Assembly (NCBI GenBank): GCA_016839555.1
Contig: JAEOUA010000010.1
Coordinates: forward strand, 288,001-352,000
Source: Promethearchaeota archaeon
Lineage (GTDB): Archaea > Asgardarchaeota > Lokiarchaeia > Sigyniarchaeales > SOKP01
DNA: 64,000 nucleotides
Reading direction: 5' to 3'
Under the pieces are notes generated by a model. It searched no databases, was not told the DNA's origin, and saw only the letters and a list, made by a program, of their open reading frames with translations. Within the stretch, counting starts at the first letter, position 1; each line of letters opens with the position of its first letter. A program made the position numbers and the translations under genes. Positions 17,319-37,281 of the stretch are shown here, in pieces.

Positions 17319-17579
17319 AGTTTTGACCTAATTTTTTTTAATTATTTTCGGTGGGTAATAGGTTTTCCTATATTTTACTCAAATCTTATAATAATAAAAT
17401 ATATCATCTATTAAATGATCTTTTGTACAAATAACTTTTCTTTTCTTTTAAAAAAATCCAATTTTAATATATTAGTAAAAGTATGATTAAAACCATATTT
17501 AGGTCAATTTTTCATAAAAAATAAAATAGTTAAAAAATCAAATAAAAGTATATAATAGTTTCTATTTTATTTTGGTATT

Positions 17580-18506: not shown

Positions 18507-18868
18507 ACCCATAAATTCTTTTAATTTTTTATTTTTAAAATATGAATATTATCAACCCATAAGTTTACATTTTAGAATTTAATTTAAAAACTTCCTTTTA
18601 ATGATTAATTATTTTATATTCTGAGAATCTTCAAATACATCATTTGTTAGATATTTATTTTAAATCTTCAAATAAAAATATCCAATTTTTTATCCTATTG
18701 GGTGAAAAAATGTCCAAAATATGGTGCTTATTATTCTACTATTCCAACTTTACAATATACATCAACTATATAAGAGAGATTATCTATAGATCTTCATAGA
18801 ATGAAAAAAAATTTTTTAGAAATTTTATAAATAAATTTTCCAATTATAAAAAAATTTGAGGATGAAAA

Positions 18869-19675: not shown

Positions 19676-19677
19676 AA

Positions 19678-20433
19678 ATGAATATGCTAAGAGTATTTGC
19701 ACTAGTTAAAATGGAATTGAAAAAGATATTAAGGGAGCCGGCTTACCTGTTTTTGATGCTTTTATTTCCGGCGGTGCTATCAATAATTTTTGGATTTGTT
19801 TTTAGTTCGATTCCAAGTGGATCTCCAGGCATAAGTACTTTTGATTTAATGGCTCCTGGTATATTTGCATATGCCTGTATTTTCATAACTATGATTGTAG
19901 CTCAAACATTTTGTGAAGATAGAGAATATGGATTATTAAAACGAATAAATACCACACCAACCACATCAGCTGAATTTATGAGCAGCCATTTGATTTCAAA
20001 TACAATATTATCACTCCTACAAGTAGCAATAGTAGCAATATTCATATTCCTTATGGGTTTTAGACCAGCGGGAGGTGCTTTAGGTTTACCATTTGCCGTT
20101 ATATTCATGGTTTTTCTTTCAATATGTTCAGTAGGGTTTGGCCTAATTACTGCAACAATAGCAAAAAGCTCAGGTTCTGCAACTGGTTTAGCGTTTATTT
20201 TTATATTACCCCAGATGTTTTTTGGTACATTTATTCCTTTAAATGAAAGTACCATTATAATTGCAATGTTTTTTCCAAGTTATTATGCTACTGAATCTCT
20301 CAAGATGATCTTTAGTGGAGTAGCTTTAACAGAGATAATTATATGGATCAATTTATTAGTAATTGTTATAATGAGCTTCATTATTACAATTATTGGAATA
20401 CAATTATTCAAAAAATTTGGATCAATTTATTAG
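19678..20433 (+). CDS. ABC-2 type exporter permease
   Basis: About 6 TM segments; DREYGLLKRINTTP motif; 2 bp after the ATPase gene. Confidence 0.9.
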   Translation: MNMLRVFALVKMELKKILREPAYLFLMLLFPAVLSIIFGFVFSSIPSGSPGISTFDLMAPGIFAYACIFITMIVAQTFCEDREYGLLKRINTTPTTSAEFMSSHLISNTILSLLQVAIVAIFIFLMGFRPAGGALGLPFAVIFMVFLSICSVGFGLITATIAKSSGSATGLAFIFILPQMFFGTFIPLNESTIIIAMFFPSYYATESLKMIFSGVALTEIIIWINLLVIVIMSFIITIIGIQLFKKFGSIY

Positions 20434-20482
20434 TAATTGTTATAATGGGCTTCATTATTACAATTATTGGAATACAATTATT
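20344..20482 (+). repeat. Tandem duplication of 65 bp (20344-20408 and 20418-20482, one mismatch)
   Basis: TGGATCAATTTATTAGTAATTGTTATAATG(A/G)GCTTCATTATTACAATTATTGGAATACAATTATT occurs twice with a 74-bp period. Confidence 0.95.
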
Positions 20483-20601
20483 TTAAAATTTTTTTTAAAA
20501 ATTTGATAAATAAAAAACTATTAAATTAACATAAAGAATAGTAATCATTTTTTTTTTCCAATAGTAATAATTTTTTATATGAGTTTTTATTCTATATTTT
20601 T

Positions 20602-21330
20602 ATGAGTCTGACACCTTTAGATATTCTCAACGGCTCTTTAGGACTTTCGGTTGTATCTATCTCTATTATTCTGGGGATAATCGTATTATTAAAATATTTC
20701 AAAAATCAAGACAAACATTTCATTTTAATGGGTCTTACATTGATTTTCATGACATCAGGCTGGTACGGAACAAGTTTATCCTTTATAGTTGCTTTACTAT
20801 TTAATAATGAGGGATTACCTCTCGAAGCGATTATGCTCTTAAATTTTATTCCGCTTCCCATCAGTTTAATCTCATGGGTTGTATTTTTTACTGATATAAT
20901 CTTGTTAAAATATCGAGGAAAATTAATCATTGGGAGTGTGATAGGATTTACTGTATTTTTTTATGTTGTATTTCTAACCTTACTTTCTATTGACGTTACT
21001 CTTGTTTCAGAAAAGATTTCACCCGTAGATACTTTAGGCAAAAATTGGTTTCTTAATTCATTTATATTTGTGTATGTAGCAATTTTATTAGTTACGGGGA
21101 TAAAATTCTCTCTCGAAACAATCAAATTTGATGATATTGTAATGAGAACTAAAGGCAAATTTCTCCTAATTGCTTTTCCTTCTTTTTCTCTAGCAGGAAT
21201 TCTTGATAGTTCCTTGCCATCAAATGAATATACATTAATTATTTTTAGAGGGATATTAATAACAGGTATAATTTTGTTCTTTATCGGCTTTTTATTACCA
21301 AAATTTATTAAAAAAAAAATAGTGAAATAA
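20602..21330 (+). CDS. Seven-TM hypothetical membrane protein
   Basis: About 7 hydrophobic segments, no catalytic motif. Confidence 0.7.
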   Translation: MSLTPLDILNGSLGLSVVSISIILGIIVLLKYFKNQDKHFILMGLTLIFMTSGWYGTSLSFIVALLFNNEGLPLEAIMLLNFIPLPISLISWVVFFTDIILLKYRGKLIIGSVIGFTVFFYVVFLTLLSIDVTLVSEKISPVDTLGKNWFLNSFIFVYVAILLVTGIKFSLETIKFDDIVMRTKGKFLLIAFPSFSLAGILDSSLPSNEYTLIIFRGILITGIILFFIGFLLPKFIKKKIVK

Positions 21331-21480
21331 GCTTAAAAACTGAATATTTAATTTTTTTTTTCCTTATTTTTGTATTTTAGAATAAAATAGTAAAGAAATT
21401 TCTCAGCTATATAAAAATTAATCAATTTCTGAAAATAATTAAGAGAAGTGAATCGAGGTTATTTTTTCCAACAGATATAT

Positions 21481-22485
21481 TCAATTTTTAGATGTTTTGC
21501 AGTACTTCTGAAAGCATTCGCAACACGGAATTCCAAAGCTTATATGATTATAATATCTTTTCTTAAAATGAAACGATTCATTCATCAGTACTAATAATTG
21601 GTTTTTTATCTTAATTTTATATTTATCTTTACTGAAATAAAAACGTTTAAGATAACTGGAATGATTTCTCGAATTACAAATTGGACAATATTTAAAGAAA
21701 TTTAGAAATTCAATTAATTCTTTTCGTTCTTCTAATGATAACTCTATTTTTGTTGAACCTTGAAATTCTATTTCTCCTCGCATGATATCTCTCAATCTTA
21801 GTAAATTGTTAGGGAGATCATTGGTATGGGGCAAATCGTCTAAATTTGAAGAGGAAAGCAAATCATTTTCGTTTAAATTGAAATATGTTTGACTTGCTAT
21901 TTCATTATGAGAAGATTGTTTGATTTTGCCGAGATTTCGTCTTAAATAATTTTTTTCTTTATTCGATAAAATATTCATACCAGTTAAAATCTCGGCCACA
22001 TGATTAAAAATAACATCTATATTAAATCCTTGTTTGATTGAAATAAAATAAGGACCAATAAGGTCATGATTATGAGCAAACTTTATGATATTCTCGTAGG
22101 GGACAGCTGGGATTATATCAGATTTTGTGCCTAATAATATAATGGGAACCTCCTCAGAAAAGGCATGAATAATATCAATCCAAATCGGCAGATTAATAAA
22201 AGATTGAGGATCTGTGAGATCAAAAAATAAAAGAAAAATAGCAGTTCCCCTGAAATAAGAGGGAATTAAAAAATAAAAATTTTCAGCAACATTTACATCC
22301 CATATTTGTAATTGACAATGGAGTTCATTGTCTACTTTTAATTTTTTAATATGAAAATCCAGCCCAATATTCTCACTGAAATCTTTAAAAAATTTCTGAC
22401 TATCTTTATCATAATTAATAAAGGCGGACTTTCCGGAACCATTTGAGCCAATTAAGAGAACCTTATATATCCAACCGACTTTCAT
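21481..22485 (-). CDS. Divergent Rab-like small GTPase with C-terminal Cys/His metal-binding domain
   Basis: GSNGSGKS, IGLDF, LQIWD, YFRGT, TKSD, ISIK; C-terminal CPIC-x4-H..IPCCECF. Confidence 0.8.
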   Translation of the reverse strand: MKVGWIYKVLLIGSNGSGKSAFINYDKDSQKFFKDFSENIGLDFHIKKLKVDNELHCQLQIWDVNVAENFYFLIPSYFRGTAIFLLFFDLTDPQSFINLPIWIDIIHAFSEEVPIILLGTKSDIIPAVPYENIIKFAHNHDLIGPYFISIKQGFNIDVIFNHVAEILTGMNILSNKEKNYLRRNLGKIKQSSHNEIASQTYFNLNENDLLSSSNLDDLPHTNDLPNNLLRLRDIMRGEIEFQGSTKIELSLEERKELIEFLNFFKYCPICNSRNHSSYLKRFYFSKDKYKIKIKNQLLVLMNESFHFKKRYYNHISFGIPCCECFQKYCKTSKN

Positions 22486-22724
22486 ATTAAAATATCCACC
22501 TTGATAATTGTTATAAATTCCAATATTAATAAAACAATTTAAGATAAAAAATCTTAGTATGATATATTATAATCAGAATTATTCTATAAAAATATAAGTT
22601 AAGAATCTATTAAATTTTTGATTTTAATTTTATAACGTTCTATGGTCTCATATATTTCTTGAATACTTCATAAAAAATAATAAAATATTAAATGAATAAT
22701 AAGGAAAGTTGTAAAATTCTTAAA

Positions 22725-23948
22725 TTAGGCTAATTGAATACTACATGGAAATATGGCTGCCCTTAGTTCATTTCCATGCATCTTTTCTAATTCTTGTACC
22801 AATGTATCCAATTTACCAAAGAGTTTTACAGATTTAGGGAAAAAATGATACAAATCATATTTAGAGATGTTAGGGGAAAACAAAAGGACATCTCTGCGTT
22901 TCACAAAAGCTCTCCAAACAACATTATCCCCTATATTTGTGTATATTCTAGAACCTGTTTGCCCTGTTAAGCTATGGTATCCTCTTCCCTCATAAGAGGA
23001 AGACATCAAAACAATTGTACCTTTTCTTTTTAACATCTTACTCGGAGCGGTCATTAGAAAATTAAAGCCCTTAATTGCTTGGCTTAATTCTGAATCTTCT
23101 GGATATAGATTAAAAAAAGCCACATCATTATCTAATGTAACTTCAGTATTATAAAATTCTTTTCCAATTTCCATCGCCCTTCTATGAGCATCTCTAAAAT
23201 GTCCAGAAGTTATTGCCCCAATATTTCCTTCCTCGGTTAAAATTACATTCACAGAAAAGTCTAATCCCACTTTATCTGCTATTTCCTCAATATCTTCGCG
23301 AACTTTAGTCATTCTTCCTATTCCCGCACCTATGCCACGCATCGCTGCAGAATGATTTGCTTCAAGAGTTTTAATACCAGAAACACCTGGCAATACTATC
23401 TTTGCTCCTCCTCCAAAACCTGCTAAAGGATGAGGAATAACCCCTCCAATTGAAATTTTTAGATCTGCTTCATAATATGTCTTATTAATATGAATGGGCG
23501 TTCCCATCTTAGATTCACCTAATTCTACTAAATTTTCATAAGGATGATGATTTTCAATATTAATAGTATCAACCACATCTTTTCCTAATTTAAGAATACA
23601 ATCGTGCCGGTTCATTGGTTTATGTGCCCCTATTGCGAGTAAAATAGTAATTTTCGATCTATCTATGTTAGCCTCTTCTAATTCGCTGAGAATATACGGC
23701 ATAATTTTGTAGATGGGAGTCGTTCTGGTCATATCATCAACCACTATAACTACATTTTCTTTTCCTTTCGCCAACTCAGATATTCTTTCTGTTCCAATGG
23801 GATTTAAAATGCTTTCTTTAATTTTCTCATTATTTATCTCGGAATTTCCATTCATTCTGCACACAGAAATATCCCAGCTATCTGGTAACTTTAATTCCAA
23901 GGTTTCAGGAGCGCGCCATGCGGCCCAAGGTATTTTTATAGATGGCAT
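22725..23948 (-). CDS. larA: LarA-family (nickel-pincer) alpha-hydroxy-acid racemase/epimerase
   Basis: VVDDMTRTTP, AIGAHKPM, PHPLAGFGGGAKIVLPG. Confidence 0.8.
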   Translation of the reverse strand: MPSIKIPWAAWRAPETLELKLPDSWDISVCRMNGNSEINNEKIKESILNPIGTERISELAKGKENVVIVVDDMTRTTPIYKIMPYILSELEEANIDRSKITILLAIGAHKPMNRHDCILKLGKDVVDTINIENHHPYENLVELGESKMGTPIHINKTYYEADLKISIGGVIPHPLAGFGGGAKIVLPGVSGIKTLEANHSAAMRGIGAGIGRMTKVREDIEEIADKVGLDFSVNVILTEEGNIGAITSGHFRDAHRRAMEIGKEFYNTEVTLDNDVAFFNLYPEDSELSQAIKGFNFLMTAPSKMLKRKGTIVLMSSSYEGRGYHSLTGQTGSRIYTNIGDNVVWRAFVKRRDVLLFSPNISKYDLYHFFPKSVKLFGKLDTLVQELEKMHGNELRAAIFPCSIQLA

Positions 23949-24289
23949 TATTATTCCTTCAAATTAATTTTTTAGGGTTTTATTTTTTTCAAAAACACTT
24001 ATATTATTTTGTATAAAAAATGCTTATCTTTAAAAAATATTGACTTAACCCGATAAAATTATTCGACTTATAAAGAGAAAATATAAATTGAAGCTCTTAT
24101 CAAAATATGAATAAGAATTTGATCATTTCTTTAAAATTCTTATTTAAATTTTTTAATAAAATATAAAAAATGTTTAAATAGAATTTTTATTTATATAATA
24201 AAAAATCTGAATTCGCAAAAACAGATCTTATTAAAAACTTAGAAATTAATTAATTATTTTTAAATTACAAATAAAAGAATGTTTGTTTT

Positions 24290-25165
24290 ATGAAGCTTCT
24301 TGAGAATAAAAACGCTCTTATCACTGGAGGAGGAAGAGGTATAGGTAAGGCAGTAGCACTCGATTTTGCCTCTTCGGGTGCAAATGTTGCTGTCGTAGCT
24401 CGGACCAAAAATGAATTAGATCAAACAGTTAAAGAAATTGAACAATTTGGAGTAGAAGGGCTTGCAATTCAAGCTGATTTATCGAATCTTGAACAACTTA
24501 AAAAGTGTACTGAGAAGTTTTTAGATTATTATAAAAAGTGTGATATTTTAATCTGCAACGCAGGCATGACACAGGCTGCCTCTATTATTGAATTTCCAAT
24601 TGAAAAGGCCAAGAATTTGTTTGATTTGAATATTATGGGGTATTATGGAATGATTAAATATATTGTGCCTAATATGATCAAATATGGCGGAGGTAATATT
24701 CAAATGACTTCCTCAGTTCAAGGTAATGTGTTTTTTCTCCCAAAAAAGGCAGCATATTCCGCTTCCAAAGCTGCCATCACCGCAATGGGTAAATGTTTAA
24801 GTCCAGAGTTAAAGCCACATAATATCTCAGTTAATGTAATCCTTCCGGGAGGTGTGGAAACTAAAATGACTCAGTATTTGAGGGAAAAAGGACAGATAAT
24901 GCCCACAGTTCCACCTGAAGATATATCTCCTATTTATCTGTTTTTAGCTACGGAAGAAGCAAAAAAAAATGGATATGGGGGAAAAGTTATTGATCAGATG
25001 AAAATATTTAACTTTTTGCCAGAAATAAAAGAATTCGTCGAAGAAAAACCATTTAATATTAAGAAAGTCTATAAAGAGATGAAAAACAACATGAAAAAAG
25101 ATCACGCTTTAATGTTTCGAAAAAATACAGAATTAATTGAATTTCTCATAAAATTCAAGAGATAA
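24290..25165 (+). CDS. Short-chain dehydrogenase/reductase
   Basis: TGGGRGIG, CNAG, YSASK, PGGVET. Confidence 0.92.
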   Translation: MKLLENKNALITGGGRGIGKAVALDFASSGANVAVVARTKNELDQTVKEIEQFGVEGLAIQADLSNLEQLKKCTEKFLDYYKKCDILICNAGMTQAASIIEFPIEKAKNLFDLNIMGYYGMIKYIVPNMIKYGGGNIQMTSSVQGNVFFLPKKAAYSASKAAITAMGKCLSPELKPHNISVNVILPGGVETKMTQYLREKGQIMPTVPPEDISPIYLFLATEEAKKNGYGGKVIDQMKIFNFLPEIKEFVEEKPFNIKKVYKEMKNNMKKDHALMFRKNTELIEFLIKFKR

Positions 25166-25246
25166 TTTTCTACCAAAATTATCTAATAATTCTTATTGAA
25201 AGAACAATTTTTAATTCTTAATTTGTTCTAATTTGAGGATTTAGAA

Positions 25247-26656
25247 TTGAAAACTGAATTAGACCTAATGGATCATGATTTCCGATATACTGAATTATTT
25301 CCGATATATCTTTTGGCTGGTTGCTTTACCTTAGCCTTTTCAAGTCTTTATATATTAGTAGTGCCCTTATCCTCATTATTTTGGCCCGGAGATGAGTTTC
25401 ATGCCCTTGAAATGGGAATTCTCATATCTACCATGTTTTGGCCCATAGCAATATCTGGTTTAATGTGGGGTAGGTTTATTGATAAATATAATAGAGTAAA
25501 AATATTTTTTATTGTGGCTTTTGCTCGTGGAGTGTGTCTAATTCTTATGAGTTTCACAGTAATGGGACTTGGTATTATCTCATGGACTTATTTTTATATT
25601 TTAATTTTGATTTTTGCCATTTTTGCTGGAGGTAATTACCCGACAGTTGTATCGCTAGCAGATGATATTGTTCCTGAAGGAAAAAGATCACGATTTTTTG
25701 GCATTTATAATATTATAAGAAGCAGCTTTCAATTTATTGGGTTTGTTGTAGTAGGTTTTTTAGTTCAGATAGGATTATGGCAATGGATATTCAGTAGTAT
25801 AGGCATATTAATGATCATAGCAGGAGTAATCATGGTAAAAAAAATTAAGGAACCTAAACGAGGGATTCAAAGAGAAGAATTAAAAAATGTTTTAAAAAAA
25901 TCTGAGGTGGTGTATAATTTTCAAATTGACCGAGAAACTATGAAAAAGACTATGCTAAGTAAGACTAATGTGGTTGCTTTAATTGAAGGTATTTTTACAA
26001 GTGTGTTTATGGGAAGCTTAACCATCTTATTTTTACCTTATATACAATCTCCACCCTATAATATCTCACCCTTTTCAACTGGTGTATTCTTAGCATTTTT
26101 TGGTCTGACGGGAGGACTCATTGGTATGGGTTTTTTTGCTCATTATTCCGACAAATTATCGAAAAAAAAATCGATACTGCGGATCTTTTTTATTATCATT
26201 TCTTTATCAGTTGGTATGATAACCTTCGTCTTTCTCTTTTTCATACCCCTTCCTCCTCTCACAGTTGAGGAAGGGAAAGATCTCTCTCGATTTATGGTAG
26301 ATCCCACTGTATGGATTATGGGTATAATATATTTATTATCCACATCATTTTCAGCCTTATATAACATCAATCAACCTCCTTTATTACAGGAAATTAACTT
26401 ACCTGAAGCTCAAGGCCAAATAATAGCATGGAATCGTTTTCTTGAAGAAATTGCGTGGGGATTGGGGCCATTCATATCGGGAATCTTTATAACCATCTCT
26501 GGTCAGAATTACCAACTAGTTTCAATAATAATAGGGCTTTTTGCTGTTCCCGGAATAATTTTATGGATATTCGCATTAAAATGGTATCCGAAGGATAAAG
26601 AAGAAATAATCAAGATATTAGAACAACGCTCAAAAGACCTAGAATCTAGAGAATGA
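25247..26656 (+). CDS. MFS transporter (paralog of 35842-37281; ATG alternative at 25268)
   Basis: About 12 TM; GRFIDKYNR; shares EPKRG, TMLSKTN.VALIEGIFT and LQEINLPEAQGQI with the paralog. Confidence 0.85.
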   Translation: MKTELDLMDHDFRYTELFPIYLLAGCFTLAFSSLYILVVPLSSLFWPGDEFHALEMGILISTMFWPIAISGLMWGRFIDKYNRVKIFFIVAFARGVCLILMSFTVMGLGIISWTYFYILILIFAIFAGGNYPTVVSLADDIVPEGKRSRFFGIYNIIRSSFQFIGFVVVGFLVQIGLWQWIFSSIGILMIIAGVIMVKKIKEPKRGIQREELKNVLKKSEVVYNFQIDRETMKKTMLSKTNVVALIEGIFTSVFMGSLTILFLPYIQSPPYNISPFSTGVFLAFFGLTGGLIGMGFFAHYSDKLSKKKSILRIFFIIISLSVGMITFVFLFFIPLPPLTVEEGKDLSRFMVDPTVWIMGIIYLLSTSFSALYNINQPPLLQEINLPEAQGQIIAWNRFLEEIAWGLGPFISGIFITISGQNYQLVSIIIGLFAVPGIILWIFALKWYPKDKEEIIKILEQRSKDLESRE

Positions 26657-26701
26657 ATGCTTAAACGGCTAATATTGAAATTCTTTTACCATAATGAAAA
26701 A

Positions 26702-27895
26702 TTAACTTTTCTGCACTAGTTCCAAACATTCCCTATAAAAGAGATTTCCATAATGATTATTTGGTACCTGTATAATATTTTCTTTTTTCTTCTGCTGTTC
26801 TCTTAAATGATTCCTTCTGGCATTCATTAAATCTATAAATGCCTCCAAACGTGTTCGAAAGCCCTCGACTCCACTCTGCTCATCAAATGAGAAAAAGATC
26901 ACCGGCATATCATATTTCTTTTTAAGTTTATTAGTAATGATAGTTCGAGCAGTTATTTCAGGCATACAGGTGAAAGGGTAACTATGTACGAAGCCATCAA
27001 AACCTGCTTTTGCATTATCAATATACTGTCCTATAATCCAGACAGCTTCTCCTCCTATATCCATTGGCATGTATGGTTTGGCTACATGTTCTAACCATTT
27101 TCTATGAAAATTCACATGCAGTTTATGAGCAATCCAATCATATAAACTAAGACTTTGGTAAAGTTCTACACCCATTTCGCCCAATCTTCTTCGAATATCG
27201 AGGTTTACATATGGTTCTAAGGTAATATAAATTTCTCCGGCAAGGCCTACTTTTAAAACATCCCTTGATTTGTCAAGGTCAATTTTATTGAAATCTTCTT
27301 TAATAACCGATTTGAAATGTCTAAGCTCATGGAGAGTATTTGCATCGTCAAGTTTATGTAATAAACGATTCACTGTTTTTGTGGTGATTCCTTGTTCTCG
27401 TTCATACGCACGAAATACTCCCTCCGCTGTATGTATATTTTGTAGATATAAGCATTTTTTTAAGAAGAAAATAACGGCTTTTACAAAATTAGAATATTTA
27501 AAAAGCCCTGCTACTTGATTTACTTCAAAAAGGGTTTTTACCCAACTGAAATCTAAAAGGTCTGCTTGATCAAGAGGAATAAGCCGAAAATCCTTATAGC
27601 CCACATCTCGAAAAATGCGCTCTTGAACACTGGCATAGAACCCAAATCTGCAGGGTCCACAATCAATCGCCATGATAATAGTATTTGCTCCTTTATCAAG
27701 CGCGCTTTTTAATTCACCAAGCGTTGCCTTAAAGGGGAAACATACAAATTCGGGGCTATGTTTTACTCCAAACTTTACCAACTCGCGATTGACTGGTGTA
27801 GGTAACACTACTTCTGCATCTAGGGATTCAATAAGCGATTTAAAAGCGACCCAAGATGTTCCCATGCGAGGGAATGTTACCTTCGGATTCGGCAT
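26702..27895 (-). CDS. 2-hydroxyacyl-CoA dehydratase-like subunit (PlsR/Ger reduction-dehydration domain-like)
   Basis: HSPEFVCFPFK, GPCRFGFY, GEIY..LEP..N, PFTCMPE, DEQSG..G..TRLEAF. Confidence 0.8.
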   Translation of the reverse strand: MPNPKVTFPRMGTSWVAFKSLIESLDAEVVLPTPVNRELVKFGVKHSPEFVCFPFKATLGELKSALDKGANTIIMAIDCGPCRFGFYASVQERIFRDVGYKDFRLIPLDQADLLDFSWVKTLFEVNQVAGLFKYSNFVKAVIFFLKKCLYLQNIHTAEGVFRAYEREQGITTKTVNRLLHKLDDANTLHELRHFKSVIKEDFNKIDLDKSRDVLKVGLAGEIYITLEPYVNLDIRRRLGEMGVELYQSLSLYDWIAHKLHVNFHRKWLEHVAKPYMPMDIGGEAVWIIGQYIDNAKAGFDGFVHSYPFTCMPEITARTIITNKLKKKYDMPVIFFSFDEQSGVEGFRTRLEAFIDLMNARRNHLREQQKKKENIIQVPNNHYGNLFYRECLELVQKS

Positions 27896-27914
27896 TTTTG
27901 TAGTTTATTTATCC

Positions 27915-28030
27915 ATGAAAATTAGTATATTATGGAAAGAAATGTTCATACTATAAAAAATATTTTCATCTCAATAATTATATTAAACATATTTTTCAAT
28001 CAATATTTTCTTTAAAGGTGTTAATATTTT
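27915..28030. repeat. Copy 1 of ~115-bp imperfect direct repeat (copy 2 at 29665-29780)
   Basis: Exact 34-bp core CATACTATAAAAAATATTTTCATCTCAATAATTA at 27947 and 29697; flanks colinear with offset 1750. Confidence 0.85.
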
Positions 28031-28124
28031 TATAATAAATAATTGAAAAGAACGCCGACAGAATTTATATGCCAGAAATAATTCGGTTCAAATCTAATGA
28101 CTCTGAGTTTAAATAAATTATTTA

Positions 28125-29603
28125 TTAATTTATATTTTGGTTCCTTTTTTTATCTGTTTCTATGAATTCAAATCCGATTAACTTAGCCAGATCCCTAAAT
28201 TGCTCTCTTAAATCACCATAAAATGCTACTCGATGATTACCAAATGCTTTTCCATCTATATTCTCAGCTATTGCGCTTGCATTGGTTTTAATCATCAATT
28301 TTGTTCTACATATAATATCATCCCAATGTTTAAAATAATCTTCGCCGTCAATAGTTTCTCCTGTAAAGACACATATTTTTTTATCGTGCATACTTATTTT
28401 GGCTACTGTGACTTTTTCCCCTATGGGTAAATTTACTTGTACGCAAGCACCACCCTTATTCTCTTCCCAGTGTGGTAGATTTCTTATAATATAGGGCGCC
28501 TTTTGATCATTTCCATAAGGATCTGGATCCGCCTCACAATGACCAATAGTAATAGTTCCTGAAGTGGGATCTACCATAAAATCTCCATTAAATCCTGCCT
28601 TATCAGCAAAAAATAAACCAAACTGCTGAGTAACTAATGAATCTATTAGAGTTTCAGAAGTAGCAACAATATTTTCCGAAAGAAGTTGGGTAGATGGTAG
28701 CCCTTGTGACGGAATGCCCTCAGGATACCCACTTAAAATTCCACAACCCTCACCTGCTGGTTGAAAATTGCAATATCCCTCTGTGGTTATTGCCGGAGTA
28801 TTATATTTCTCCATTAATTGTTTCATGGTTAAATAAAGCTTTGCTGAGCGCACTATCTGAAAATGGTTTGTGCCTTTTATTCCTTCAGCTTCATTAATCC
28901 AATTTTGTGCTACCTTTTCGGCTTCTTCTTGATCAATTTTCTCTATTCCTTCAAAAAGTTCCTTCTGGGGGATGGGAACAAGAACAGTCCCAAATGTTTC
29001 TTCCAAATTTTTAAGATATTGCCTCTCATATTTTTCTCTTTCTTTTTTTCTTAATGGAACCTGAAATGTTTCTGGTTCATAGAAGCCAAGAATAGGCATA
29101 TCTGTAATAACCAAAACTCTTAAACCTTTCATCTTAGATATCGCTTGGATTAATCTAATTTTCTCTGCTATATCTTCTATACGGGATAAATAGAAATTCT
29201 TATCTTTATCAGGTATTACAGGTAATACAGTTTTAACAACTTTTGCCTCCTTAGAAGCACTAAAAAAGGGATATTCCCACTGTCCCCAGAGTGGATGTAC
29301 AGCTACAATAGGCAGCCCAATTGATGTTAAATCTTCTGTTGGAGTACCAAAGAAAAGAATCCCAGATAAATCTTTCTTTTGTTTTTTTATATTTCTAATT
29401 ATTTTTCGTTGATATCTACTTTTACTTACAATAAATTCGATATTTTTACATTTCTCTTTCACTGCTTGCAATATCTCTTCATTTTTCATTATCTTGGCTT
29501 CAGGATGATATTTTGGGTAAATTTTAGCTGCATCTTGAGTTCCAGAAGATGTGAATGCTACATATATTTTGGTTTTTCCATTTTCTTGTTCTGATAAAAG
29601 CAT
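28125..29603 (-). CDS. L-fucose/L-arabinose isomerase-like protein
   Basis: AITTEGYC, SETLID, IGHCE, TVAKI, CRTKL, GNHRVAFYGD C-terminal pattern. Confidence 0.65.
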   Translation of the reverse strand: MLLSEQENGKTKIYVAFTSSGTQDAAKIYPKYHPEAKIMKNEEILQAVKEKCKNIEFIVSKSRYQRKIIRNIKKQKKDLSGILFFGTPTEDLTSIGLPIVAVHPLWGQWEYPFFSASKEAKVVKTVLPVIPDKDKNFYLSRIEDIAEKIRLIQAISKMKGLRVLVITDMPILGFYEPETFQVPLRKKEREKYERQYLKNLEETFGTVLVPIPQKELFEGIEKIDQEEAEKVAQNWINEAEGIKGTNHFQIVRSAKLYLTMKQLMEKYNTPAITTEGYCNFQPAGEGCGILSGYPEGIPSQGLPSTQLLSENIVATSETLIDSLVTQQFGLFFADKAGFNGDFMVDPTSGTITIGHCEADPDPYGNDQKAPYIIRNLPHWEENKGGACVQVNLPIGEKVTVAKISMHDKKICVFTGETIDGEDYFKHWDDIICRTKLMIKTNASAIAENIDGKAFGNHRVAFYGDLREQFRDLAKLIGFEFIETDKKRNQNIN

Positions 29604-29646
29604 AAAACCACCAATACTTTTTTAATATATTTTAATAATAATTTTC

Positions 29647-29667
29647 CATCAGTAGAATTTACTGATG
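29647..29667. promoter_or_regulatory. Operator-like palindrome upstream of the sugar isomerase-like gene
   Basis: CATCAGTA-gaatt-TACTGATG, 44-64 bp upstream of the 29603 start. Confidence 0.5.
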
Positions 29668-29780
29668 AAAATAAATATCTTATACAAAGAAGTACACATA
29701 CTATAAAAAATATTTTCATCTCAATAATTAAATTAATCATATTTTTCTATCAAAATTTTCCTTAAAGGAACTAACATATT
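29665..29780. repeat. Copy 2 of ~115-bp imperfect direct repeat
   Basis: See copy 1; overlaps the last 16 codons of the 29733-30185 ORF. Confidence 0.85.
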
Positions 29781-30185
29781 TTTATTTAAAATCTTAAAAT
29801 ATGCTATTATTTTATCCAAAACATAAAAAATGAGAGCATTGGCAAAATTTCTCGCAACACAGTAAATGTTTGCCGGGAATTTTGTGGCATTTTTACTCTT
29901 TTCACGAATTACATCATCATAAGGAAAAACAATTGAAACGGCACGTATATCAGATTCTTTAATATTATTCATTTCCAATCCATTTTTTTCCCAAAATTCT
30001 AGGGGGGTCAAATAGGTCTCTTTAATGATTTCATTATATTCTTTGAAGATTGGATCATCCCCTTTTGCTATACCAATTAAGGGCTTTGAAAATATAATGC
30101 CACTACCATATTCCTCAGGTAATCGATTTAATTCATTATTTTTAAGCACATCTTCTACGAATTTATATAGTTTTTCATTGTTCAT
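29733..30185 (-). pseudogene. 3'-truncated epoxyqueuosine-reductase-like / 4Fe-4S protein
   Basis: IFSKPLIGIAKGDDPIF..YLTPLE..AVSIVFP..AR matches the N-terminal half of this family. No Fe-S Cys motifs follow, and the ORF ends within the repeat. Confidence 0.6.
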
Positions 30186-30287
30186 TTTAATTTCTGTTCT
30201 AAAGGAATAACATTTTATATTAAATTATATATCATTTAATCCATAATTCTATTAAATTAATTGAATTTTTAAATTTGATAATTCTTT

Positions 30288-30695
30288 TCAGTTTTTCCTT
30301 TTATCAATCATATATAAGATGTTTAATAGTGACCAAATTAATGGAAGAATTGCCCACATTACTTCTGTAAAGACAAATTCAAAATAACCAATTGCGATAT
30401 ATGTAATTTGTAATATACTAAATGAAAATCCAGCGGGTATTCCTAATATTATTAAAATTTCGTACTTCTTCATATTCTTATAGAGAAGAATATTACCAAT
30501 TCCGTTATAAATAATCATCCAGAGCCAAAAGAAACTTATCATCGCTCTCGCGCGAGCTGAAAAGGGTTTAGTTCCTACTAACGAAGCGAGTACAGGAGCA
30601 AAGAAGATCATAAAAAGAGCGACAAAGGTAAAAGTTATGCCAAAAATTAGCCAAATTTTCTTCCATATTTTCTCAGAAAACATTTTTGCTTTCAT
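30288..30695 (-). CDS. Small 4-TM hypothetical membrane protein
   Basis: Four hydrophobic segments. Confidence 0.65.
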   Translation of the reverse strand: MKAKMFSEKIWKKIWLIFGITFTFVALFMIFFAPVLASLVGTKPFSARARAMISFFWLWMIIYNGIGNILLYKNMKKYEILIILGIPAGFSFSILQITYIAIGYFEFVFTEVMWAILPLIWSLLNILYMIDKRKN

Positions 30696-30809
30696 CCTCT
30701 TATTTTCATTAAATAATTTTGATTAAATTTCATAGATTGTATTTTAATTATTAAACATTTTTAAAAAGTATATTTATCAAATGGAGAACATTTTCAACTT
30801 AGAGAAACT

Positions 30810-31718
30810 ATGAAAGATATACTTATTAAGATTTCTGATGATTTTCCAGAAATTTTTTTCGTAAAAGGACAGAGAAACGGAAAATACCCATATTCCCATA
30901 GTATGCTATTAAAAGACACTCTTATTGATACAGGAATATCAAGCGGTTTTTTAAGGAAACTTAAACGAAAAATAAAAATTAATAATGTAATTTTATCACA
31001 CTGGCACGAGGATCATATATGTGGCAATCGTCTCTTATCCCAGGCGAATTTTATGGCTCATAAGGAAGATATCCATATAATAGAAGATATATCGAAAATG
31101 TACGAATATTATCACGTGTCCAATGATCCTGAGCAAATTGAACTTTTTGACGCTATTTTACAAGGTTTACGATTAAAGAATACCACCATTGATAGCATTC
31201 TCTCAGATAAGGATATTATAGAAATAAACGATTTATACGAACTGCAAGTTATTCATACGCCAGGGCATACCAAAGGTCATTCTTGTTTTTATGAGAAAAA
31301 TTCAAAAATTATATTTTTAGCAGATATTGACTTAAGCAGTTTCGGTCCTTGGTATGGATGTAAAGATTCAAATATTATGGAATTTGAAGACTCTATTAAA
31401 AAATTAAAAGAATTGCAGATTGAAATAGCAGTCTCCGCTCATAAAGGTATTATTTATGGGTCAAGTAATATCCAGAATCAGCTAGAGGAGTATTTAAAAA
31501 AAATATATCAAAGAGATGAAAAAATATTAAAATTTCTTTCAGAAAATTCCCCTAAAACTTTAGAAGACCTAGCAAACAAAAATATTATCTATTCTACCTA
31601 TAGTGAATATAAAATTTATGAAATCCTTGCTGAAAAAATAATGATTAAATCTCATTTAACTAAACTACTTAAAGAAAATAAAATTTCACAAAAAAATAAT
31701 GGATATATTTTGAGCTAG
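30810..31718 (+). CDS. Metallo-beta-lactamase-fold hydrolase with C-terminal wHTH
   Basis: LIDTG, SHWHEDH, HTPGHT, LADID, SAH. Confidence 0.88.
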   Translation: MKDILIKISDDFPEIFFVKGQRNGKYPYSHSMLLKDTLIDTGISSGFLRKLKRKIKINNVILSHWHEDHICGNRLLSQANFMAHKEDIHIIEDISKMYEYYHVSNDPEQIELFDAILQGLRLKNTTIDSILSDKDIIEINDLYELQVIHTPGHTKGHSCFYEKNSKIIFLADIDLSSFGPWYGCKDSNIMEFEDSIKKLKELQIEIAVSAHKGIIYGSSNIQNQLEEYLKKIYQRDEKILKFLSENSPKTLEDLANKNIIYSTYSEYKIYEILAEKIMIKSHLTKLLKENKISQKNNGYILS

Positions 31719-31832
31719 AGATTCTTTCTACTTAAAAAATAAATAATGATAAAAATATAAAGATTAAAAACTAGAATAATAAAAATAGATAATTAAGGAA
31801 AAATACTGTGCTGATTAAATAATTCAGACATT

Positions 31833-32894
31833 TTAAAAGATTTCAGCTTTTTGCTCCCTTTTTTCTATCTCGAATCTCTTCTTCCGTTTTATCATTTCCG
31901 TGAAAGCCCCAATTCTTGTTTTCAAACCCGCGTCGCCAGAATGCTCATCCATTATGATAGCCAAGTAAGGGAGTCTCACCACTTTCATATCTCTCATGAT
32001 TAATTCAGAAATAAGGCTATCTGGTCCACAAGCAAAACTAATTAAGAACACAACACCGTCTATTTCATTTCTTCCTTTAGTTAGATAATATCTAACCGCC
32101 TGCATGAGCTCTTCCTCATGTATCCAATAATTTTGGAGTTTTCTATTCACAACAACAGGTACTTTAAACACAGATTCAGGCAAATTTTCAATAGTTAATA
32201 CCTCCGCGCCCATTTCATGTAATTTCTTCTGAAAATCTAAGTTAATATAGGTATCAAATAGATTATATCCGTGGCCCAGCAACAAAAGTTTTATCTCACC
32301 TTTCTTCTGTTTTTTTGGCAATTTGAAGGGTCTGTCTCGCCTAACTAACCGTAATGCATAATTAACAGGAGCACCTTCTCGGAGGAAATTTAAATATTCC
32401 CGGTAATAATTCTTTGCTTTTTCATAAGCCTCTAATGATTCTTCTCTGCTTTTTCCTAATTGCTTACCAAGCTCTATAGCAGAAATAGATATGGGAAATT
32501 CTTTTATATTAACTTCAAAATTCAATATCTCTGGAACATTGGGAAGAATTTTGATTACATCGGGAAGTGAGATAAATTTAGGACAGAAGAATCCCTCTTT
32601 TACATCTGACACGTATCGAGGAACAAACAAATAATCTAAATCCGGGTAATTTTCTATTAAATGAAATATATGCCCATAATAGATTTTCATAGGAATGCAA
32701 AGTTCACCAAAGCCATGCTGGACGCCCACCTCTACGATTTTTTTGTTTGTTTCAGGGCTTAATATGATTTCCACTCCTAATTCATCTAAAATTTTTTTCC
32801 AAAATGGGAAGTATCGATAGTAATGAAGCGCACGTGCGATACCGACTTTGATTTTTGAACTCTCTTCTTGTTGTATAATTGACATTTTAAGCAT
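31833..32894 (-). CDS. DUF2229 / acyl-CoA dehydratase activase-related subunit (PlsA/Ger-like domain)
   Basis: VGIARALHYY, ELCIPMK..GH, FFCPKF..LPD, LLGHGYN, SFACGPDS, DEHSGDAG..TR..AF. Confidence 0.82.
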   Translation of the reverse strand: MLKMSIIQQEESSKIKVGIARALHYYRYFPFWKKILDELGVEIILSPETNKKIVEVGVQHGFGELCIPMKIYYGHIFHLIENYPDLDYLFVPRYVSDVKEGFFCPKFISLPDVIKILPNVPEILNFEVNIKEFPISISAIELGKQLGKSREESLEAYEKAKNYYREYLNFLREGAPVNYALRLVRRDRPFKLPKKQKKGEIKLLLLGHGYNLFDTYINLDFQKKLHEMGAEVLTIENLPESVFKVPVVVNRKLQNYWIHEEELMQAVRYYLTKGRNEIDGVVFLISFACGPDSLISELIMRDMKVVRLPYLAIIMDEHSGDAGLKTRIGAFTEMIKRKKRFEIEKREQKAEIF

Positions 32895-32905
32895 TTACTA
32901 GATGT

Positions 32906-34612
32906 TTAAACTTCTGTTTCATCATATACTAAGAGTTCTTCAATTCTCTTCATCAGATTATTTGTTAATCTCTTTAATTCATCATAATCTGGCATTGGTT
33001 TATCAAAATATTTTGCATGTTCCATAAAGGGTTCTCCCGCTTTAAAAGTAGAGCCATGTCCAAAATAGATCGTTTTTGCGTGTTTAGGATAGGTATGTTC
33101 GGTACCTGTTATTCCTATGGGAATGATCGGAACTTTCGCATTAATTGCTAACCGAACCGCGCCTGTATGTCCCTCTAAAACCTCTGGTCCAGAGTGAGTA
33201 GTACCTTCGGGATATACCACTACTAATTCTCCATCTTCAAGCCTATCTTTTGAATAACTATAAGATTCCATATCATGAGTACCTCTTCTTAACGGATATG
33301 CGTGGTGAGTTCGCACCCAAGCATTAACAATCGGGATTTGAAATAATTCTTGTTTTGACATCTGATATAGCATCCGTCTCTTCGTCACCTCTAGACAATA
33401 AGCATGCATGATTACATCCCATTCAGAGTTATGATTCGAACAAATCAAAGCTCCTCCTTCATCTGGCACATTCTCATATCCTTCAATTTTAAGTGGCGCA
33501 AAATTGTCAACGATGAATTTTACAGTCGGATATGTGAGACCATGTTGAATAAGTTCTTGGAATTTATATCGGAGTCCAAATTCTTCCAGGATTTTCAATA
33601 AAGCAAACCATGCATCATCGATAGATTGAAGGAAATAATTTTGATAATATTTTAACCAATATTTAAATCCCTTTTGTTGTTTTTCTTTTTTCTCATCTTC
33701 TGGAGATCCTATAGAAAGCTCATCTGGAGTTTTGTGTTTAATTACCTTTTTTGCATATTGTCCCTTTCCTTCACGTAAATCTAGTATCTTTTGCCGTAAT
33801 TCATCTGTTAATTTCCTTGCGAGTTCAGGAGTAAGTTTTCCCTTATATTCATCATAACGGAAGGGTTTTCCTACTCGGGCTTTCACTTGAACGGGAGTAC
33901 CAATTAATTTTCCCTTAGGAAGAGCATCCCGTGATCCTAAAATGGCTATCGGAACTATTGGCACACCAGTCTCTACTGCAAGTCTTACGGCTCCCGTTTT
34001 AAATTCACCTAAAGTGCCATCCATACTTCTCGTACCTTCTGGAAAGATGCCTACGCATTCACCTATTTCTAATTTATGTTTTGCATAAACCCATGCTTTT
34101 TTTACATCCTCCTTATTTCCTCTTTCACCTAATGTAAATGCACTTAAGTTTTTAAATAGCGTACGAATAATGGGAGTCTTAAAGTTCTCTGGTTTGCTCA
34201 TAAAGTTTAATTTACGAAAATTTGTCATACCGCAGAAGAAAGGATCAAGGTGCGAATTATGATCTGAAACTACAATACATGGTTCGGTATCTGGGAAAAG
34301 TTGGCCATCTTCATATTCGCAATCAAATCTCCATAAAAGACGACAAGCGTGTTTTACCCAAATTTCCGCCAGCCACCATTGAATTCTTTGCTCTGATTCG
34401 GTTAGTCCTAATTGATCAATTATTTTACGATAGATATCATTTAAGGGATCAATAGGGTTGTATTTTAAAATTTTATAGAGAAAATTTTGATGAGGTTTTT
34501 TCCATTTTAATTCCTCGCTGGGTCGCTCTTCTTCAGCCTCCCATTCACCTATAGTCTTCTGTTGAATATTACTAATTTTTTCCTTTTCTATTTCACTTTC
34601 TTGTTCTACCAT
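32906..34612 (-). CDS. plsC: Tandem two-domain PlsC-family glycerolipid acyltransferase
   Basis: Domain 1 has HNSHLD, FMSK, FPEGTRS; domain 2 has HNSEWD, QMSK, YPEGTTH. Both HxxxxD motifs are intact. Confidence 0.88.
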   Translation of the reverse strand: MVEQESEIEKEKISNIQQKTIGEWEAEEERPSEELKWKKPHQNFLYKILKYNPIDPLNDIYRKIIDQLGLTESEQRIQWWLAEIWVKHACRLLWRFDCEYEDGQLFPDTEPCIVVSDHNSHLDPFFCGMTNFRKLNFMSKPENFKTPIIRTLFKNLSAFTLGERGNKEDVKKAWVYAKHKLEIGECVGIFPEGTRSMDGTLGEFKTGAVRLAVETGVPIVPIAILGSRDALPKGKLIGTPVQVKARVGKPFRYDEYKGKLTPELARKLTDELRQKILDLREGKGQYAKKVIKHKTPDELSIGSPEDEKKEKQQKGFKYWLKYYQNYFLQSIDDAWFALLKILEEFGLRYKFQELIQHGLTYPTVKFIVDNFAPLKIEGYENVPDEGGALICSNHNSEWDVIMHAYCLEVTKRRMLYQMSKQELFQIPIVNAWVRTHHAYPLRRGTHDMESYSYSKDRLEDGELVVVYPEGTTHSGPEVLEGHTGAVRLAINAKVPIIPIGITGTEHTYPKHAKTIYFGHGSTFKAGEPFMEHAKYFDKPMPDYDELKRLTNNLMKRIEELLVYDETEV

Positions 34613-34628
34613 ATTAAAATATCATCTC

Positions 34629-35420
34629 TCAAGATTTTATTTTTAATGAATTTTTTTCATTAGTGTTTGTTATTTCTTTATATTTTATTCCAAATAATTC
34701 CAATAATTGGTTCAACGAATTCAAAAGTAAATCAGGATGAAAACTCTGAAGAATATCCTCATTACTTATTCCACTGGAAATAGCAATGGTCCATAATCCC
34801 GCTTCACGGCCAGCTTCTATATCTGTGGGCATATCTCCCACCAGCAAAAATTCATTTCCATGAAAGGGATTATATCGGCTTAAGACGGGCTGAAGTGCTC
34901 GAGGATCTGGCTTTAATACCGGTAATTCATCGGCTCCAAAAACACCATCGAAATAATCCTTACAATTTTCCTCCTCTAAATGCTGGATGATATTCTTCGT
35001 CTGATTATGAGAAACTATATACAAATCGTATTTTTTACTCAATTCTTTAATTAATTGAATAGCTTCTGCGAAAAATTTCGCTTCTTTTTCATATTCTAAA
35101 TATTTAGAGAAGATTTTGGTGGCAATGCTTAATTTTTTTAAGAAGGTGATATTGCTTAGCGAGGTTATATGTTTGAAGATTTGATGTGATTGAAGGATTA
35201 TTTTTGGTAATGGATATCCTTGTACAGATTCTATCACGGCCCCTATCTCTTTAATAGTTTTTTCCATATCATATTCAATCTTATTTTCTTTGAGAACTTC
35301 ATCAATTGAACGTTCTAGTGGTTCATTTATATCCAATAACGTGCCATCAAAATCAAAAATGATACTACGTAAAGTATTGGATTCAAGCCAATTCAATAGT
35401 AGATTGTCTTTATCGTTCAT
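34629..35420 (-). CDS. HAD-superfamily phosphatase (subfamily IA)
   Basis: FDFDGTLLD, VSHN, KPDP, VGDMPTDIEAG. Confidence 0.88.
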   Translation of the reverse strand: MNDKDNLLLNWLESNTLRSIIFDFDGTLLDINEPLERSIDEVLKENKIEYDMEKTIKEIGAVIESVQGYPLPKIILQSHQIFKHITSLSNITFLKKLSIATKIFSKYLEYEKEAKFFAEAIQLIKELSKKYDLYIVSHNQTKNIIQHLEEENCKDYFDGVFGADELPVLKPDPRALQPVLSRYNPFHGNEFLLVGDMPTDIEAGREAGLWTIAISSGISNEDILQSFHPDLLLNSLNQLLELFGIKYKEITNTNEKNSLKIKS

Positions 35421-35841: not shown

Positions 35842-37281
35842 ATGAAAAAAAAAGAAGATCGGGAAGACTTAAAAGGTTCCTATAATAAAAAATTATGGCC
35901 CTTATACTTGCTTAATGGATTCCAGTCCATTGCGTTTGGAGGTTTTATAATTTTAATAGTTCCGCTTTCAGAAATCTTTTGGCCCGGTGATACTACTCAT
36001 TTTATAGAGATGGGGTTGTTATATTCAACTTTATCTTGGACATCTGCGATTGGGGGGTTGTTATTGGGTAGATTAATTGATAAATATTCAAGAAAATTGA
36101 TTATTATCATTATTTCTATTTTTAGAGGATTTCCGATGATATTACTAGGTTTTGCCATAGCGGGACAAGGAATTAACACCTGGACTTATTTTATTGTAAT
36201 GATTGCTATCTTTGGTTTTTCTGCGGGAGGATCTTGGCCATGTGTCATAAGTCTCTCAAATGATATCGTTCCCAGAAATTATCGCAGCCGTTTTTTTGGG
36301 TTATACGAAATAATTCGCCGAAGTTCTAATATGGGGGGGTGGCTTATTGTGACTTATCTTGTACAATATGGTTTTTGGAGGGAATATTTTTGGGGTATAG
36401 GTATTCTAATATTATTCTCAGGAGGCATTTTTGCCATTCATAACAAAGAACCTAAACGAGGAGCAATACAAGAAGAACTATATGATGTGTTGAAAGATGA
36501 ATCGATTGTCTACGATTTTCAAATAGACAAAAAAATGATAAAGGAAACCATGCTTAGTAAGACAAATATTGTTGCCCTTATTGAGGGAATTTTTACTTGG
36601 ATTTTAATGTCAAGTTTAAATTTCCTTATTTTAAATTTCATTCAAAATCCCCCGATAAATATTTCTGAATTTTCTACAGCTGTATTTCTAGTATTTTTCG
36701 GATTAACCGGGGGAGTTTTTTCCCAACTTGTGTTTGCTCGAATGAGTGATAAGCTTGCTGAGAAAAAAAGTATTATACGCTTGCCTATCATTGTCATGTC
36801 TATAGCAGGAGGACTTGCGACCTTCGCTGTTTTCTTTTTCTTACCATGGCAACCCTTTACTCCTGAACAAGGTAAAGATATCTTCTTTTTATTGACTTTA
36901 CCAATTATCTGGATTATGGGCACATTATTTTTCACTTCTCGGTCTTTCTTTTCTTTATATATCTCGAATCAAGCCCCTGTATTACAAGAGATTAATCTCC
37001 CAGAAGCTCAAGGACAAATTATTTCTTGGAATCAATTTCTCGAAGCATTTGGAAGGGGGATTGGTCCCACATTATGCGGGGTTTTATTGGAGGTTACTAA
37101 TAAAAATTATCAGTTGACAGTTCTTATTGTAGTCGTATGTATTCTGCCCGGCATCGTTTTGTGGCTATTAGCTTTAAAATGGTATCCTAATGATCGTAAA
37201 AATATCAAGAAGATTCTAAAACAGAGAGCAGAGCTATTAAAATCGCAAAATAGGCAAAAATTTAATCCAGATACAATTTAA
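35842..37281 (+). CDS. MFS transporter (paralog of 25247-26656)
   Basis: About 12 TM; GRLIDKYSR; shared blocks with the paralog. Confidence 0.85.
   Translation: MKKKEDREDLKGSYNKKLWPLYLLNGFQSIAFGGFIILIVPLSEIFWPGDTTHFIEMGLLYSTLSWTSAIGGLLLGRLIDKYSRKLIIIIISIFRGFPMILLGFAIAGQGINTWTYFIVMIAIFGFSAGGSWPCVISLSNDIVPRNYRSRFFGLYEIIRRSSNMGGWLIVTYLVQYGFWREYFWGIGILILFSGGIFAIHNKEPKRGAIQEELYDVLKDESIVYDFQIDKKMIKETMLSKTNIVALIEGIFTWILMSSLNFLILNFIQNPPINISEFSTAVFLVFFGLTGGVFSQLVFARMSDKLAEKKSIIRLPIIVMSIAGGLATFAVFFFLPWQPFTPEQGKDIFFLLTLPIIWIMGTLFFTSRSFFSLYISNQAPVLQEINLPEAQGQIISWNQFLEAFGRGIGPTLCGVLLEVTNKNYQLTVLIVVVCILPGIVLWLLALKWYPNDRKNIKKILKQRAELLKSQNRQKFNPDTI

Follow-up and report, generated by a model that had tools for sequence, protein, structure and literature searches.

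A tandem PlsC-type acyltransferase of Lokiarchaeia encoded beside Ger/PlsA-type reductase genes, and its possible place in an ester-to-ether lipid pathway

The DNA analyzed here (the window) is a stretch of 64,000 nucleotides from a Promethearchaeota archaeon of the class Lokiarchaeia (assembly GCA_016839555.1, contig JAEOUA010000010.1, positions 288,001 to 352,000), with a G+C content of about 30%. Its reverse strand carries a gene for a protein of 568 amino acids (aa) composed of two PlsC-type acyltransferase domains. This tandem acyltransferase gene is preceded by a phosphatase gene and followed by genes related to those of the PlsA/Ger-type reductases. The presence of these reductase genes directly downstream is the strongest clue to its function. 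The members of the cluster are listed below in their order on the reverse strand (window coordinates).

34629-35420, reverse strand: HAD-IA phosphatase, 263 aa (PF13419, E 1.3e-25; FDFDGT motif), the first gene of the core cluster
32906-34612, reverse strand: tandem PlsC-type acyltransferase, 568 aa, with two PF01553 domains (N, residues ~43-299; C, residues ~316-568)
31833-32894, reverse strand: Red1, a DUF2229 plus HGD-D subunit, 353 aa (PF09989, E 2.3e-44)
26702-27895, reverse strand: Red2, a second DUF2229/HGD-D subunit, 397 aa (Pfam assignment)
16296-17318, reverse strand: Act, a BcrAD/BadFG-type activase ATPase, 340 aa (PF01869, E 2.9e-48; TIGR00241, 195.6 bits, over the cut-off)
13993-14721, reverse strand: AT3, a third PF01553 paralogue, 242 aa (PF01553, 25.9 bits), the orthologue of the third domain in the triple-domain proteins described below

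The tandem protein matches PF01553 in two stretches with a score of 197.9 bits, compared to a Pfam gathering threshold of 23. Domain N includes the HX4D motif HNSHLD (residues 118-123), AFTLGER as motif II, FPEGTRS as motif III (190-196) and VPIVPI as motif IV. The corresponding elements of domain C are HNSEWD (394-399), AYPLRR, YPEGTTH (467-473) and VPIIPI, and its motif III has no Arg after EGT. A preliminary description of this DNA, made from the sequence alone, had recognized two complete acyltransferase domains by the same HX4D and motif III sequences, and the profile search confirms them. It had also considered the two domains to be diverged. They share 32% identity over 253 aa (E 6e-25) and fall into separate clades of a maximum-likelihood tree. 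Since the alignment of the two halves includes the helices ahead of the catalytic cores, the protein consists of an entire PlsC-like unit in duplicate. The linker between the halves (residues 289-313) is disordered and modelled with low confidence, yet it bears a conserved LSIGSP motif. A scan of the whole protein identified no transmembrane helix, the best 19-residue Kyte-Doolittle value (1.61) falling on the β-strand of motif IV. The protein is probably peripheral on the membrane.

The AlphaFold model of the full protein (pLDDT 75, pTM 0.72) shows two α/β domains, each located after two long helices; those ahead of domain C span residues 316-344 and 348-370. The nearest sequence of solved structure is PlsC of Thermotoga maritima (TmPlsC, 5KYM; E 7.6e-22 with a profile of 36 homologues). 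In the predicted models, domain N (model residues 43-299) superimposes on TmPlsC with Z 18.7 and a root-mean-square deviation (rmsd) of 4.3 over 221 aligned residues, and domain C, folded alone (pLDDT 84), with Z 18.8 and an rmsd of 4.5 over 210. Both include the N-terminal two-helix motif of PlsC. The glycerol-3-phosphate acyltransferases (GPATs) rank below TmPlsC for both domains (plant GPAT 1IUQ, Z 15.1-16.8; human GPAT1, Z 14.9-15.8). The fold therefore gives no basis for calling one domain a GPAT and the other a lysophosphatidic acid acyltransferase (LPAAT). The full model had paired domain C with human GPAT1; this GPAT-like assignment was abandoned as domain C alone again fits TmPlsC best. 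TmPlsC resembles both domains in its HX4D motif, its motifs II-IV, its two-helix motif and its lack of a transmembrane helix. It differs in being a single domain of ~250 aa where the Lokiarchaeial chain has two diverged copies, and in having EGTR where domain C has YPEGTT.

Family models lead to a broad assignment. A score above the Pfam threshold, an HX4D motif in each domain, motifs II-IV and a PlsC-like fold place the protein in the superfamily of lysophospholipid acyltransferases (LPLAT/AGPAT, PF01553). The PlsC equivalog NF011593 gives 50.6 bits against a cut-off of 501. TIGR00530 gives 84.8 and 80.3 bits for the individual domains against a cut-off of 102.95, which only the sum over both domains (162 bits) passes. 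No PlsB-type NCBIfam match was obtained for the tandem protein. When the generic AGP_acyltrn domain model is set aside, the top NCBIfam model for both domains is PRK08633 (acyl-ACP--phospholipid O-acyltransferase), but its match to the whole protein (E 1e-31) is far under the cut-off and covers the shared PlsC domain only. On these sequence comparisons, "PlsC-type LPLAT domains" is a safe label, rather than "PlsC".

Both HX4D motifs are present in all 120 full-length homologues, and the HNSEWD of domain C is identical letter by letter in 110 tabulated and 10 other listed homologues. Both motifs III strictly follow (F/Y)PEGT in 110 of the 120; at least five of the remaining 10 have Ala or Ser for Gly in one motif III. 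This pattern of residues indicates that both active sites of the fused family are under strong constraint. The named homologues belong to Lokiarchaeota/Promethearchaeota. Only 19 proteins fall below 1e-30 in a library of 50%-identity representatives, and bacterial PlsC proteins are 30-40% identical to either domain. The family is thus a tight one, set apart from bacterial PlsC.

The distribution was established by a taxonomy-aware (GTDB) search of 400 genomes of the phylum. The fused form is found in 111 of the 134 genomes of the window's own family and is almost confined there. Other families of the same order have single-domain N-like and C-like genes, and two further families of the class have chains of ~875 residues. 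In the remaining 55 genera, 1 of 239 genomes gave a match. An Asgard-wide spread, to which NCBI labels (Thor, Odin, Hermod, Hod, Heimdall) had pointed, was rejected on these grounds. Proteins 52-54% identical to the tandem protein are present in metagenome-assembled genomes (MAGs) labelled Thor-, Odin-, Hermod- or Hodarchaeota (several JBHL* records). A complete Lokiarchaeial cluster also occurs in a contig labelled Nanopelagicaceae bacterium (L044, DATKTW010000084.1), which is probably misbinned.

The gene neighborhood was compared in 80 species-level loci from GTDB genomes, counts being restricted to those with enough flank. In the window, 16 nt separate the HAD gene from the tandem acyltransferase gene and Red1 begins 11 nt past the stop codon of the latter. 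Of 66 loci, 44 have a HAD gene immediately ahead of the acyltransferase and another 18 have one farther upstream (62/66 in total). Red1 is directly downstream in 56 of 62 loci and no more than 10 kb away in 4 others. In L007, L008, L009, L093, L094 and L095, Red1 and Red2 are contiguous and Act lies directly after Red2; in L007 the series continues with a small open reading frame (ORF) and AT3. The full order acyltransferase, Red1, Red2, Act occurs in three divergent lineages, the trio Red1, Red2 and Act being found after split (L008, L009, L093, L094) as well as triple (L095) acyltransferases. The HAD enzyme had been proposed to be the matching phosphatidic acid or phosphatidylglycerol phosphate phosphatase. 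Its position as a conserved partner of the acyltransferase is upheld by the counts, but all its NCBIfam equivalog matches are under the cut-off and correspond to a generic HAD-IA enzyme, which points to no particular substrate.

Act, Red1 and Red2 tile bacterial proteins of 1357-1438 aa collinearly as Act1-Act2-Red1-Red2 (P0287, P0288, P0297, P0322). These proteins contain two BcrAD_BadFG domains followed by DUF2229. The aligned bacterial residues are 5-627 for Act, ~633-985 for Red1 and ~987-1375 for Red2. Act aligns to both Act1 and Act2, with 39-46% identity in the three closest proteins (P0287, P0288, P0297). In some Lokiarchaeial lineages (L050), the gene after Red1 encodes an Act-Act-DUF2229 protein of 976 aa, so that the system has two genes, as plsA-plsR does. 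Act1-Act2-Red1-Red2 is the layout described for the anaerobic plasmalogen synthase (PMC12838417). Its relative Ger converts an sn-1 ester to an alkyl ether on anaerobic expression in E. coli, and Ger homologues have already been reported in Lokiarchaeota (PMC13159169). PlsA/PlsR and Ger thus share with the Lokiarchaeial system the two BcrAD_BadFG domains, DUF2229, HGD-D, the domain order and an occurrence in anaerobes. The Lokiarchaeial system differs in its division into three genes (two in some lineages) and in its linkage to acyltransferase and HAD genes. The genome holds a single DUF2229 system. A search with Red1 for proteins of near length returned Lokiarchaeial proteins only among the 120 matches listed, which is uninformative on where the system came from. 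Elsewhere (L067:17746-21595, L044:3306-8178) there is a further DUF2229 system, paralogous to this one and with Act-like and Red2-like genes of its own; in some genomes it is only a few kb away from the acyltransferase genes. This system has a Red1-like subunit with an FAD_binding_4 domain fused at the N terminus (~800-846 aa, as in P0284).

The tandem gene is part of a family that exists in three fusion states. The tree places its N and C halves in two distinct clades (SH-aLRT 99 and 98), each of which includes stand-alone proteins. L009, L093 and L094 have an N-like gene next to a C-like gene, arranged as in the fused gene; the last two loci come from sister-family genomes that are closed (G135, 4.36 Mb; G138, 6.04 Mb). 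The tandem protein therefore corresponds to a fusion of two old paralogues rather than to a recent duplication. Proteins of ~875 residues (P0130, P0283, L095) have three PF01553 domains each, and their domain 3 groups with the separate gene of 230-240 residues found downstream in the tandem lineage (SH-aLRT 99), here AT3. AT3 has lost the catalytic His (SDNIFR-D) and has TPESK for PEGT, as do 12 of 12 aligned orthologues. From these residues it is probably a pseudo-acyltransferase, a non-catalytic subunit. In complex predictions, AT3 with the tandem protein gave an ipSAE of 0.44 (best control 0.00), with at least 92% of contacts agreeing between runs and a partner pLDDT of at least 79. Of 80 solved complexes, 58 reach the mark used for such predictions, as do 2 of 110 mismatched pairs; at ipSAE values of 0.60 or less, only 7 of the 80 and both mismatches do. 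The result is rated as weak support. The natural triple-domain fusion is a stronger argument that AT3 and the tandem protein work together.

The C-type site has a different fate in some relatives. In the two closed genomes, an intact N-type gene adjoins a C-type gene (L093:9852-10688, NFQSAID; L094:8747-9541, reverse strand, NSQSTLD) that has lost motif III and the catalytic His, while the rest of the cluster is kept. The C-type protein P0189 likewise has a degenerate motif III and no catalytic His in an intact cluster. In these three proteins, His is replaced by Phe or Ser. In the triple proteins, domain 2 has FPQQTT. The N-type site is thus the invariable one; that of the C type looks active here and in certain other lineages but is dead elsewhere. 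The retention of clusters around dead C-type orthologues indicates that two acylations are not the invariant core function of the system.

Other lipid genes were sought in the genome, which is 92% complete. No family match was obtained for PlsY or PlsX. A whole-genome search with PF01553 returned the two domains of the tandem gene only, AT3 being too divergent to register. The tandem protein is thus the sole candidate with an intact catalytic motif, should glycerol esters be formed. Searches for GpsA (PF01210) and for glycerol-1-phosphate dehydrogenase (PF13685) gave weak, generic matches only. Geranylgeranylglyceryl phosphate synthase is clearly present and normal archaeal lipids are therefore expected alongside.

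Two further genes of the window have relatives near some of the other clusters.

35842-37281, forward strand: major facilitator superfamily (MFS) transporter (PF07690), divergent from the HAD gene; on weak evidence, a possible associated transporter
22725-23948, reverse strand: LarA-family gene (nickel-pincer hydroxy-acid racemase), within the region where the cluster is broken

MFS homologues occur in the flanks of ~34 related loci, and a second, related MFS transporter is encoded in the window at 25247-26656 (forward strand). An identification of the MFS neighbor as an LplT-type lysolipid transporter was rejected, since it has no specific match and its weak likeness to organophosphate/anion MFS proteins is far under the cut-offs. 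In another lineage, the triple acyltransferase and HAD genes flank a distant LarA-like gene (L092:4550-5920, L095:9096-10484). LarA was not retained as a fixed member of the cluster: no homologue at E <= 1e-10 is present in the flanks of the fetched loci and the gene recurs only in the triple-domain lineage. The ORFs of 54 and 164 aa found after Act have no Pfam family.

Taken together, the architecture, conservation, clustering and homology of these genes lead us to infer substrates, acyl donor, order of steps and product as follows. The tandem acyltransferase would transfer fatty acyl groups, the donor probably being acyl-CoA, once or twice to an acceptor of the glycerol-phosphate type, with formation of an ester. 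The three-part ATP-driven Fe-S reductase (Red1, Red2 and Act) would then reduce an ester to the alkenyl or alkyl ether, while a phosphate would be taken off at some step by the HAD enzyme. Such a reductase needs an O-ester and the bulk lipids are isoprenoid ethers, so that the ester must be made first; a dedicated acyltransferase encoded nearby fits this need. In our estimation, that the tandem protein is the ester-forming module of a pathway of this kind, which acylates and then reduces to an ether, is about evenly poised between right and wrong. The more complete version, in which Lokiarchaeia have a self-contained route to fatty-acid-derived glycerol ethers without PlsB or PlsY, the tandem protein performing both acylations ahead of a Ger/PlsA-type reductase and a dephosphorylating HAD enzyme, seems unlikely to hold in all its parts.

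Several observations weigh against this proposal. Both activities are deduced here from the genes. The likeness of Red1, Red2 and Act to the proven Ger/PlsA enzymes (Tmari_0479 of T. maritima, CPE1194/1195 of C. perfringens) is one of architecture and Pfam membership. The acceptors used by PF01553 enzymes are varied. In the window itself, the cluster is in three reverse-strand pieces split by inserted genes: HAD, tandem acyltransferase and Red1 (35420-31833); Red2 (27895-26702); and Act, a small ORF and AT3 (17318-13993). The gap of ~4 kb between Red1 and Red2 (27896-31832) contains a metallo-beta-lactamase gene and three ORFs without Pfam family, and that between Red2 and Act (17319-26701) contains MFS, short-chain dehydrogenase/reductase (SDR), LarA-like, Rab-like GTPase, ABC transporter and helix-turn-helix genes. 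No PF01553 gene is found beside the bacterial Ger-layout gene in the two loci inspected. Unlike the Lokiarchaeial cluster, these bacterial genes stand alone, and the acyltransferase-reductase linkage is therefore without bacterial precedent among them. Finally, the sole lipid analysis of a cultured Lokiarchaeon (Imachi 2020) is reported to have found archaeal isoprenoid lipids only (cited in PMC13400652 and PMC9385802). The authors of PMC13400652 consider that the method could have missed ester lipids.

The preliminary description had put forward a possible single-chain phosphatidic acid synthase; its alternative, in which a mono-isoprenyl ether would be acylated to hybrid lipids, is conjectural. 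In the first case, one domain would act as GPAT and the other as LPAAT. The products would be ordinary diacyl ester phospholipids and the link to the reductase would be secondary. Such a reading draws on the invariance of both active sites in the fused family, on the absence from the genome of PlsY and PlsX matches and of any other PF01553 gene with an intact motif, and on the phosphate-binding Arg of motifs II and III in domain N; the fusion of paralogues that adjoin elsewhere also fits two consecutive steps. The two conserved sites stand, but a division of labor between GPAT and LPAAT is not separable in the data: the domains are equally PlsC-like, neither being nearer to the GPATs, and domain C lacks the motif III Arg. 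Moreover, the domain C orthologues of the two closed Lokiarchaeial genomes have neither His nor motif III while the cluster persists, and cultured relatives are reported to have archaeal lipids only (PMC9385802). We regard this explanation as rather unlikely.

Two other explanations also make use of the neighboring genes. One of these is lysolipid re-acylation or scavenging in the manner of Aas/LplT, where lipids or lyso-lipids of bacterial partners would enter through the MFS protein, be re-acylated and perhaps be turned into ethers. A syntrophic life has been described for Lokiarchaeia, MFS genes recur in the flanks as indicated above, PRK08633 heads the specific models for both domains and L003 and L008 have AMP-binding (acyl-activating) genes close to the cluster. 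However, the AMP-binding gene is not a fixed neighbor, the MFS proteins have no LplT-specific match and the PRK08633 similarity stays within the shared PlsC domain, far under its cut-off; the explanation appears improbable. Alternatively, the acceptor might not be a glycerolipid but another hydroxyl compound (a head group, polyol or hydroxy acid), whose ester would be the substrate of the radical enzyme. PF01553 members are able to acylate ornithine lipids, lipid A, phosphatidylinositol mannosides and further acceptors, and PatA and LpxM are among the fold matches. HAD-IA enzymes usually act on small soluble phosphates, and a LarA-family racemase gene is found inside the triple-domain clusters and in the window. 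Against these points, the closest structure by a clear margin is an LPA acyltransferase, TmPlsC, and domain N keeps FPEGTRS and the motif II Arg, which are typical of glycerol-phosphate-type acceptors. To our knowledge, the only characterized DUF2229 enzymes act on glycerolipid esters. An acceptor of this other kind is likewise of low probability.

The acylate-then-reduce proposal has parallels in known systems. In the eukaryotic and myxobacterial ether route, GNPAT acylates dihydroxyacetone phosphate (DHAP) and AGPS then puts an alkyl chain in place of the acyl group. This route follows the same logic and begins with an enzyme of the PF01553 family (PMC13159169), but it relies on the FAD-dependent AGPS instead of the ATP-driven Fe-S radical reductase proposed here. 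No AGPS gene is linked to the Lokiarchaeial cluster. A precedent for two consecutive acylations by one chain is the ornithine-lipid synthase OlsF (bioRxiv 10.1101/2022.08.18.504050), which also has two acyltransferase domains. In OlsF, however, an N-acyltransferase is joined to an HX5D O-acyltransferase of another family, and ornithine is acylated; the tandem protein matches the OlsF model of NCBIfam at only 20.6 bits.

Homologues of PlsC and PlsY in Lokiarchaeota have been published (Coleman 2019, PMC6431249; Manoharan 2019, PMC6737245), and the PlsC homologue of that literature, to which Villanueva 2017 (as cited) also belongs, is probably of the same gene family as the tandem protein. A 551-aa protein of the LCGC14 marine sediment metagenome (P0040, KKN09905.1), 54% identical, is a member of the family. 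In the accessible portions of the papers of 2019, which deal with the lipid divide, Lokiarchaeota PlsC serves as a presence/absence marker, and its function is called unresolved in PMC9385802 and PMC13400652. The open literature searched, which does not cover Villanueva 2017, contains no description of the tandem protein or of its occurrence as split genes and triple chains, and none of the pseudo-acyltransferase or of the conserved linkage to reductase and HAD genes.

The debate on the lipid divide and eukaryogenesis has long asked for the reason why Asgard archaea have lipid genes of bacterial type. The present analysis turns a presence/absence marker into a multi-gene system whose acyltransferase exists in three fusion states and is accompanied by a phosphatase, an ester reductase and a probable pseudo-acyltransferase. 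This system is conserved across the Lokiarchaeial class and also occurs in the two closed genomes of the sister family. The acylate-then-reduce hypothesis is testable with the assay that worked for bacterial Ger. If its more complete version is true, the closest archaeal relatives of eukaryotes would possess a class of lipids with bacterial or eukaryote-like chains and archaeal-like ether bonds, from which non-isoprenoid alkyl glycerol ethers of anoxic sediments could in part derive.

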